Virus record (IMG/VR): IMGVR_UViG_3300045118_000414
Length of the DNA stretch: 64,000 nt
Strand: one strand, 5' to 3'
Origin: a virus
Lineage: Duplodnaviria > Heunggongvirae > Uroviricota > Caudoviricetes
Positions 11,596 through 11,850 of this stretch are shown in pieces; the stretch's first letter is position 1; each line of letters begins with the position of its first letter. The position numbers and the translations under genes were made by a program. The notes under the pieces are model-generated. The model saw only the letters and a list, made by a program, of their open reading frames with translations. It was not told the origin of the DNA and ran no database searches.

Positions 11596-11850
11596 AATGG
11601 GGGTTTTTGCTACAGAGCTCGTTATATGCATGCAGCCGACCGACGCTTAAGCTGCACAGGGTGCCCTTAGACGTCTGTCATCGCGATCGGCGCCACCAGG
11701 ATCTGGAGGACCATGGATCTCTGCCTGCACGCGATTTCCACGCCCGCGCGGCCGAGCCGAAGGCGGCGAGTCGCAAGACGAGCAGGACGCGTGTATCTGG
11801 AAATCGCGTATTAAAAATTCCATTGCGTAACGCAATAGAAAAATCCTAAA
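11596..11850. other. GC-rich, highly structured island (compositionally foreign), candidate structured ncRNA / retron msd-like or inserted element
   Basis: abrupt GC jump in an AT-rich genome; 12-bp perfect inverted repeat ACGCGATTTCCA (11729-11740) / TGGAAATCGCGT (11798-11809) enclosing a GC-rich loop; palindromes ATCGCGAT, CCATGG; hairpin TTGCGTAACGCAA (11824-11836). Confidence 0.45.

Follow-up and report, generated by a model that had tools for sequence, protein, structure and literature searches.

A GC-rich, palindrome-dense island beside a phage retron-type reverse transcriptase may hold a second, giant retron RNA

A 64,000-nt stretch of a Caudoviricetes genome (IMG/VR record IMGVR_UViG_3300045118_000414), referred to here as the window, contains a GC-rich island at positions 11596-11850, ~450 nt upstream of a minus-strand gene for a retron-type reverse transcriptase (RT; 10127-11017). 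We are fairly confident, from sequence comparisons, that this island is a conserved, structured RNA element, read in the sense of the RT gene, that belongs to a phage retron module. With somewhat better than even confidence, we further propose that it is a second, giant msr-msd, in which the RT would bind a conserved hairpin (H), prime at G11871 and copy a palindrome-rich tail and a stem domain (P1) into a long RT-DNA. Among the candidates listed in the original prediction, which was made from the letters of the DNA alone, a retron msd-like template is the one we favor, given the retron-type RT just downstream on the minus strand and the retron RNA layout within the island; a structured non-coding RNA, also listed there, is compatible with this choice.

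The island stands out from its AT-rich surroundings, as had been predicted. Its GC fraction is 0.62 in 11600-11799, compared with about 0.33-0.37 in the flanks, and the 200-nt peak (0.625 at 11609) is the maximum of the 64 kb, ~5.9 standard deviations above the window mean of 0.371 (standard deviation 0.043); the second-highest peak reaches 0.53. It is the sole strongly GC-rich stretch in the window as well as the densest cluster of GC-rich 6-bp palindromes (10 per 250 nt versus a window mean of 0.98±1.09), and it is present in a single copy. Conserved edge motifs at 11558-11567 and 11872-11881 make the true island slightly wider than 11596-11850. The open reading frames (ORFs) on both strands that had been called artefactual (11607..11849, plus; 11647..11835, minus) both exist and are not conserved as coding sequence in relatives; spurious ORFs of this kind are to be expected wherever stop codons are rare. 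The predicted 12-bp perfect inverted repeat (11729-11740 and 11798-11809) is present and extends as a weaker 25-nt repeat, and none of 200 dinucleotide shuffles of the region reached a 12-bp stem (mean 6.7, maximum 10). The smaller motifs were likewise located, namely ATCGCGAT (11680-11687), CCATGG (11711-11716), GCAGC with GCTGC (11632-11636 and 11651-11655) and the terminal hairpin ATTGCGTAACGCAAT (11822-11836). The island gave no blastn match among 50,697 phage records; Rfam 15 at gathering thresholds matched nothing in the window except a tRNA, and at expectation values up to 10 only chance-level matches were obtained for the island and for the spacer next to the RT gene.

The RT comprises 296 amino acids (aa), counted from Met43 of a 338-aa ORF (10127..11143); homologues begin at Met43 in an alignment of 22 sequences, which places the start at position 11017. 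The protein matched Pfam RVT_1 (2e-20) and the retron RT models of PADLOC (3e-71 to 1e-48), aligned over its full length with NCBIfam retron_St85_RT at 217 bits, just below the 235-bit cut-off, and had the retron Ec86 RT as its best solved relative in the PDB (6e-37). Hallmarks of retron RTs are NAxxH in region X, the YADD active site and the VTG triplet in region Y (PMC7736814); they are present here as TNAQQH, YADD and KVTGIV, and residues A122, H125, Y217-D220 and G267 were invariant in the 22-homologue alignment. An identical RT was found on a 215-kb contig. The window itself, in which PHROG families of phage ATPase, protease, primase and polymerase were matched, looks like part of a large phage.

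Loci of related RTs, designated by L-numbers (L006, L008, L011, L025, L170 and so on), were used for comparison. Among relatives whose RT is 49-55% identical to that of the window, the gene order consists of a MoxR-type ATPase, a VWA protein, a 61-aa Zn-ribbon-like ORF, the GC island, a small ORF (ORF81 in the window, ORF81/82 in relatives), a non-coding spacer of about 300 nt, the RT, another small ORF and a ~300-aa radical-SAM-like protein. A GC-rich island occupies the same place in every near relative, and identical copies of it are carried by independent samples. The original prediction had reasoned that an island missing from all related genomes and matching a host chromosomal segment would signify passive pickup; the island was found to be syntenic and structurally conserved in all near relatives. 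Six distinct loci share one order of elements in the RT sense: TATAGCTATA(G), a variable hairpin, hairpin H, 12-13 nt, a stem, a GC-rich tail, an A/T-rich linker and G-TATAGCTA, the last standing immediately before the ORF81 start codon. The layout of H, spacer and P1 is kept in relatives with RTs 39-55% identical. L006 carries a further insertion between the island and ORF82.

The 5' domain of the island, read on the minus strand, folds better than shuffled sequences (z score -2.9, equalled by 0 of 200 shuffles). It begins with H0 (11843..11862), a small, sequence-variable hairpin in the minimum-free-energy fold that would correspond to msr stem-loop 1; a hairpin of differing sequence was judged by eye to occupy this position in five relatives. 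Hairpin H, UUCUAUUGCG-UUA-CGCAAUGGAA (11818..11840, core 11822-11836, minus strand), follows as the putative msr stem-loop 2 and handle for the RT. Its core, TGCGNNNCGCA, is unique in the window and kept in six relatives plus L025, and the hairpin has the form AUUGCG-NNN-CGCAAU across six distinct loci. Stem P1 begins 13 nt past H with the 5' arm (U)ACGCGAUUUCCA (11798..11810) and ends with the 3' arm UGGAAAUCGCGU(G) (11728..11740). Between the minus-strand arms lies an interior (11741..11797; 46-112 nt in relatives) of GC-rich small hairpins, including GCC-UUC-GGC at 11756-11764, and a semi-conserved GCGGGCG(U) next to the 3' arm, which begins with the final U (11740) of this motif. A U run follows H in this window and is not conserved in relatives. 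An 11-bp perfect repeat (11833-11843 and 11892-11902) that could compete with H was not conserved in the relatives inspected.

That this domain acts as RNA is indicated by the pattern of change in its helices. H, a 12-13 nt spacer and an 11-13 bp perfect stem were found at seven distinct loci with seven different stem sequences, and 0 of 200 shuffles per locus reached the observed P1 stem length. A script served to tabulate the pairings, in place of a MAFFT alignment of trimmed H-P1 segments that was out of register. When the H and P1 helices are read in the RT sense they contain 10 G·U pairs versus 1 A·C pair. The covarying helices and the strand-specific G·U pairs indicate an RNA that would be made from the RT strand. 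A composite scan for a hairpin, 9-17 nt and a stem of ≥10 bp over ~1.06 Mb of loci, on both strands, returned matches only in the RT sense in these loci, together with one probable false match; the same scan also recovered L025, whose RT is 39% identical.

The island also travels with the RT. In L025, hairpin H, a 13-nt spacer, P1 and a palindrome tail lie ~3.5 kb downstream of the RT, past the radical-SAM-like gene, and a further group with RTs 37-43% identical has a GC-rich, palindrome-dense island 2.5-3.6 kb downstream of the RT. L020 has the island followed directly by a small unit with the arrangement a1-G-hairpin-a2 (retron end repeats a1 and a2, described below) and then by the RT. In both gene orders the island has the orientation of the RT and is no more than 3.6 kb away from it; such islands are rare in bacterial-type loci of lower RT identity. 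Pattern scans of viral and bacterial genome collections recovered two known RT contigs only, the other 60 of the 62 stretches looking like chance. In L021, a near-perfect hairpin of ~230 nt (5830-6060; z score -9.9 versus shuffles) stands right before the palindrome island, replacing the H-P1 domain.

Beyond P1, the minus-strand tail (11591..11727) is a fast-evolving GC-rich body that we propose as the main part of an msd template. It contains nine different 6-bp palindromes (CCATGG, GGCGCC, CGATCG, TCGCGA, GACGTC, CTTAAG, GCATGC, ATGCAT and GAGCTC), versus 2.4±1.4 in dinucleotide shuffles (z score 4.6). Enrichment was greater in the tails of L170 (22 observed, 6.7 expected; z score 6.0), L172 (38 and 12.2; 7.5), L021 (30 and 8.2; 8.4), L013 (33, all different, and 7.6; 9.3) and L032 (24, all different, and 3.2; 11.6), and 13 tails pooled gave 260 palindromes versus 69.2±8.1 (z score 23.7). 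Maximal palindrome length peaks at 6-8, several tails (L013, L032) have no more palindromes limited to 4 bp than expected, and palindromes with one central N are enriched as well (z scores 4.6-4.8). Taken together, the islands contain 56 of the 64 possible hexamer palindromes, and any one island repeats few of them. That the palindromes are non-redundant was dropped as a general claim, since it is clear only for L013 and L032 and diversity elsewhere equals uniform sampling. The spacers between palindromes, read on the RT-sense strand, have C>G and A>T in most tails. Tail length ranges from about 100 to 560 nt in the six distinct loci, and no similarity between the tails of different loci was detectable, even for L170 and L172, whose flanks align. 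We found no description of restriction-site-like palindromes in the body of any retron.

A second element, nearer to the RT, provides the standard against which the island can be compared. To judge from its sequence layout, the canonical msr-msd of this RT is the minus-strand segment 11059..11191, an element distinct from the island, with a1 at 11183-11191, the branching G at 11182, stem-loop 1 at 11163-11176, an H-type hairpin at 11144-11158, an msd hairpin at 11071-11112 and a2 at 11059-11067; one more H-type hairpin is found farther upstream on this strand (11268-11282). The 299-nt spacer between ORF81 and the RT that contains it folds with a z score of -4.1. Across seven loci this spacer holds a small variable hairpin, a conserved xGUGCG-NNN-CGCACx hairpin and a variable long hairpin, and the a1/a2 arms are 9-11 bp long and differ in sequence, with G after a1 and AG before a2 in 7/7. 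The H-type hairpin (GCG-NNN-CGC) occurs twice in this RNA. Treating the RT-proximal element as the only retron RNA was considered and dropped, because the layout of the family (…ATA|G, H-type hairpin, AG|UAU…) also fits the palindromic edges of the island. A search for shared or complementary segments between the two RNA units, as priming or template switching might use, gave nothing consistent.

Those edges are formed by a 10-bp palindrome. The upstream copy, TATAGCTATA (11872..11881, minus strand), is the proposed a1; it overlaps the stop codon of the 61-aa Zn-ribbon ORF and stands at the same place in L006, L008, L011, L170 and L172. The proposed branching G (11871, minus strand) follows and leads into a U-rich run. 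At the other end, minus-strand segment 11558..11590 comprises an A/T-rich linker, G11568 and the downstream motif UAUAGCUAUG (11558-11567), the proposed a2, the final three bases of which form the ATG of ORF81. Apart from these two edges, the 64 kb contains no copy of TATAGCTA. The two copies are complementary to each other because the motif is a palindrome, and a1, 5'-UAUAGCUAUA (11881-11872), pairs over 10 bp with a2, 5'-UAUAGCUAUG (11567-11558); the arrangement TATAGCTATA|G ... G|TATAGCTATG has 10 bp here and 7-10 bp in five relatives. On this reading the island would run from a1 and its G through stem-loop 1 and the family hairpin as stem-loop 2 to the template, and from there to a G and a2. 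Two hairpins stand in the msr position, the second of the GCG-NNN-CGC type as in the RT-proximal msr, and in the msd position the covarying 11-13 bp P1 stem encloses hairpins, followed by a larger tail that lacks significant structure. In the wider RT family many a1 arms end in ...AUA|G, and a scan for a1, G, H-type hairpin, ..., AG and a2 located units just upstream of the RT in many more distant members. The islands in L032, L093, L020 and L012 are bracketed by other inverted repeats of 8-11 bp, with G after the 5' arm. L015, L018 and L027 each have two tandem a1-G-hairpin-a2 units, and several RNA units per RT may be common in this RT clade.

Taken together, we propose the following scheme. 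The island would be a non-coding RNA gene on the minus strand, a second and larger unit built on the plan of the RT-proximal msr-msd. The palindromic UAUAGCUAUA at both edges would pair as a1/a2, and G11871 after a1 would be the branching, priming G. H0 and H would form the msr, in which the GCG-NNN-CGC hairpin H probably recruits the RT. The P1 domain and the palindrome tail would form the msd template, ~240 nt here and up to ~750 nt in relatives. Starting beside a2, the RT would first copy the tail, then the P1 domain, and would halt short of H. The predicted product is a long multicopy RT-DNA, namely a G/T-rich strand that carries many different 6-bp palindromes and ends in a 3' stem-loop. 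Translation of ORF81, whose start codon lies within a2, would also be masked by the a1/a2 pairing.

Several observations weigh against reading the island as a second msr-msd. The RT already has its canonical RNA elsewhere, which is a caveat to any msd role for the island. In the six nearest loci a1 and a2 are the same conserved palindrome and so show no covariation; a site for a dimeric protein would be equally possible. The bracketing repeats of the distant islands are best-match picks, each marginally beyond chance by a rough estimate. Neither the base before a2 nor the G right after the P1 5' arm is invariant across loci. A covariance model of the RT-proximal msr found only its training sequences and weak matches to the first hairpin (H1), and neither distant loci nor, at an expectation value ≤1, the 5' part of the island were detected; because the model misses the island, the likeness between island and msr is one of layout, not of demonstrable homology. 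Whole-island folding energy is no better than that of shuffles (z scores -0.5 on the plus strand and -1.6 on the minus strand), and most of the proposed msd is unstructured, whereas a classical retron msd is mainly one long hairpin. The short tails of L008 and L011 show no significant palindrome enrichment. Elsewhere in the window these palindromes are as frequent as expected (observed/expected ~1.0), which weakens the idea that restriction weighs strongly on this phage; that the island holds the only restriction sites of the genome was rejected on the same count. Finally, the conserved neighbors, namely ORF81, an 85-aa ORF (ORF85) and the radical-SAM-like 300-aa protein, matched no known retron effector.

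Some of the same observations would be expected if the island were an element of duplex DNA, for instance a platform on which dimeric enzymes or regulators bind, an origin, or a site of packaging or recombination. In that case proteins would recognize the TATAGCTATA palindromes as operator-like sites, and the RT neighborhood would reflect co-regulation, not templating. Gapless perfect palindromes and those with a central N are signatures of dimer recognition on duplex DNA, the edge motif is a perfect palindrome that is conserved instead of covarying, and the full island, as noted, folds no better than shuffles. We nevertheless regard this explanation as unlikely: covariation in H and P1 is complete and the G·U pairs there suit just one strand, which indicates an RNA, the spacers of the tail are strand-asymmetric, and the element keeps within 3.6 kb of the RT and in its orientation through two gene orders.

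The island could also be a structured RNA that is not reverse transcribed and regulates the ORF81-RT operon, either as its 5' leader or on its own, for instance by attenuation or by switching ORF81 translation; the palindromes might promote RNA-RNA self-association. The overlap of a2 with an ORF81 start codon that has no visible Shine-Dalgarno sequence fits such a switch, as do the U run after H and the 11-bp repeat able to compete with H, and palindromes set between A/C-rich spacers would be left exposed. Neither the U run nor the competing repeat is conserved, however; in L025 and other distant relatives the island comes after the operon, not before a small ORF; the enriched palindromes that have an unpaired central N do not suit RNA-RNA pairing; and tail length varies from about 100 to 560 nt. 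We consider a purely regulatory RNA rather improbable.

The richness in palindromes might also be a mutational by-product, left by break, fill-in and rejoining or by snap-back synthesis, in an RNA that does something unrelated. Palindromes that nest or overlap, as in ATCGCGAT/CGATCG and runs like ATCGATCGAT, do resemble filled-in sites, and two near relatives lack significant enrichment. We give this account little credence, since enrichment recurs in lineages with dissimilar tails (z scores up to 11.6 in one tail), is specific to lengths 6-8 and involves palindromes that are highly diverse, not repeated. That the island is foreign DNA picked up passively, or a miniature mobile element, whose insertion duplicated a TATAGCTA target site to give the repeats, is very improbable despite the foreign composition, the identical 8-bp motifs that bound the island and the further insertion that separates it from ORF82 in L006, because the element holds the same position in every near relative with its structure conserved through compensatory changes and its sequence diverged, is single-copy in the 64 kb, has no match in the 50,697 phage records, was recovered by pattern scans of viral and bacterial genomes only at the same RT loci, and occurs as identical copies in independent samples; this candidate of the original prediction is not supported.

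What a second msr-msd of this kind would be for can be addressed only speculatively. Symmetric sites of the duplex type sit on a seemingly single-stranded molecule, and for this reason it is conceivable, if doubtful, that the RT-DNA, its RNA:DNA hybrid or a second-strand product presents restriction- or modification-type sites to dimeric site-specific DNA enzymes, as a decoy or sensor. In a broader form, which we put forward as a tentative suggestion, large phages would use a retron RT to mass-produce natural polylinker DNA as a broad-spectrum decoy or tripwire against DNA enzymes of hosts or competitors. Equally tentatively, that DNA might be a single strand, an RNA:DNA hybrid or a duplex self-primed from the P1 hairpin, and it would carry dozens of different palindromes. 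The island resembles synthetic polylinkers in being a short stretch with many different restriction-type palindromes, most of them present once, and differs from them in being natural, conserved in position and linked to an RT. A decoy role would parallel phage nucleic-acid and protein mimics that act against defenses, such as the DNA mimic Ocr and RNA anti-CRISPRs. Were the broader form correct, it would represent nucleic-acid counter-defense, or a sensor, of an undescribed kind and a retron with a payload-type msd. In full-text literature searches, neither a palindrome-array element nor a phage retron with a template of this kind was found described.

Bacteria are known to use retrons against phages, and the templates of these systems are short hairpins. 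The module described here is like bacterial retrons (Ec86/Eco1 and the St85-family RTs) in having an RT with NAxxH, YADD and VTG, with that of Ec86 as the best solved homologue, and RNA genes upstream of the RT on the same strand, with a1/a2 inverted repeats, a G after a1 and msr hairpins ahead of a template. Unlike them, it lies on a ~215-kb phage-like contig and not in a bacterial defense island, has two tandem RNA units separated by a small ORF, lacks a recognizable effector and scores 217 bits against the 235-bit NCBIfam cut-off; the proposed msd of the island is also far larger (about 240-750 nt), mostly unstructured and full of hexamer palindromes. A retron module with two tandem RNA units, one of them a proposed giant, fast-evolving and palindrome-loaded template, is in this case carried by a phage. 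If that template is copied into DNA, natural retron templates could carry a long functional payload, which would matter for retron genome editing, limited as it is by template length; a link would exist between DNA made by an RT and sequence-specific DNA enzymes; and the retention of retron-like RTs by lytic jumbo phages, a long-standing puzzle, would have a concrete and testable hypothesis. The conserved handle of H, 13-nt spacer and P1 may serve as a search key for more examples.

Two other systems invite comparison. In AR9-like Staphylococcus jumbo phages, a retron-like RT is preceded by a ~1.2 kb non-coding region suspected to hold RNA (bioRxiv 10.1101/2020.12.14.422802). The RTs of AR9-like jumbo phages (MarsHill gp206 and those of vB_StaM_SA1 and LPJP1) share with the present one the jumbo-phage setting and several RNA-like units per RT; they differ in being longer proteins, only 27-28% identical, with non-coding regions that are AT-rich arrays of repeated promoter-plus-hairpin units. 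Staphylococcus phage vB_StaM_SA1 (L236, 3190-4390) and Listeria phage LPJP1 (L237, 3280-4490) each have about four repeated AT-rich promoter-like units, each then followed by a short GC-richer hairpin segment, which suggests that several small RNA genes accompany each of these RTs. Neither of these cultured jumbo phages with distant RTs has a GC island or a GC-rich palindrome array. The DRT2 (UG2) system likewise has a defense-type RT beside a structured RNA whose template region is bracketed, in that case by a stem and short repeats, and makes concatemeric complementary DNA. Assignment of the present RT to this type was rejected (26 bits against NCBIfam Drt2, where the cut-off is 390), as was a DRT2-type repeat-unit ORF, given that the edge spacing is a multiple of three here (312 nt) and in L011 and not in L170 or L172.

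ORF81 (11315..11560, minus strand) encodes a small conserved protein between the two RNA units, found at the same place in all near relatives with 33-46% identity by tblastn. It matched no Pfam, PHROG or NCBIfam family, nor any PADLOC family at meaningful significance, and a homologue search recovered only ORF81 itself. A terminator-like hairpin with a U8 run (11022..11053, minus strand) immediately precedes the RT start codon, which lies ~8 nt after it (11015-11030); an equivalent hairpin and T-run were present in 6/7 aligned loci and missing in L006. A Shine-Dalgarno sequence is visible before neither ORF81 nor the RT, and matches to sigma-70-type promoters were at chance level only. On the far side of the island, directly upstream of it, lies the 61-aa Zn-ribbon-like ORF (11877..12062, minus strand), which is conserved in near relatives.

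Downstream of the RT, the 85-aa ORF (9756-10013, minus strand) and the ~300-aa protein (8703-9605, minus strand) are kept in both gene orders with 62-72% identity. The latter has a CxxCxxC motif, a Cys-rich C-terminus and a weak match to Pfam Radical_SAM, and no solved relative was found for it by sequence. The two may belong to the RT system, or they may form a peptide-maturase pair. In L171 the radical-SAM-like gene is interrupted by LAGLIDADG and HNH insertions. An 826-aa protein, the MoxR-type ATPase and the VWA protein flank the RT module in all relatives (4840-7320 and 14694-17113 in the window); the first of these has precomputed matches to the major-vault-protein shoulder and Vault_3. 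The VWA gene is apparently split in the window, with a 425-aa N-terminal part at 14694-15971 and a 67-aa ORF at 12062-12265 that resembles the C-terminal end; intact VWA proteins of relatives are 511-519 aa long. Between the two parts are two paralogous homing-endonuclease-like ORFs (12446-13423 and 13740-14684). The ~200-nt stretch between these ORFs (about 13556-13773) is 70-90% identical to crAss-like, Staphylococcus and Clostridium phage DNA that is unannotated or internal to terminase genes, and may be an intron-like mobile element; an Rfam search of 12.2-14.75 kb gave no match. A tRNA-Ala (UGC) is encoded farther along the window, at 35656-35729 on the minus strand.

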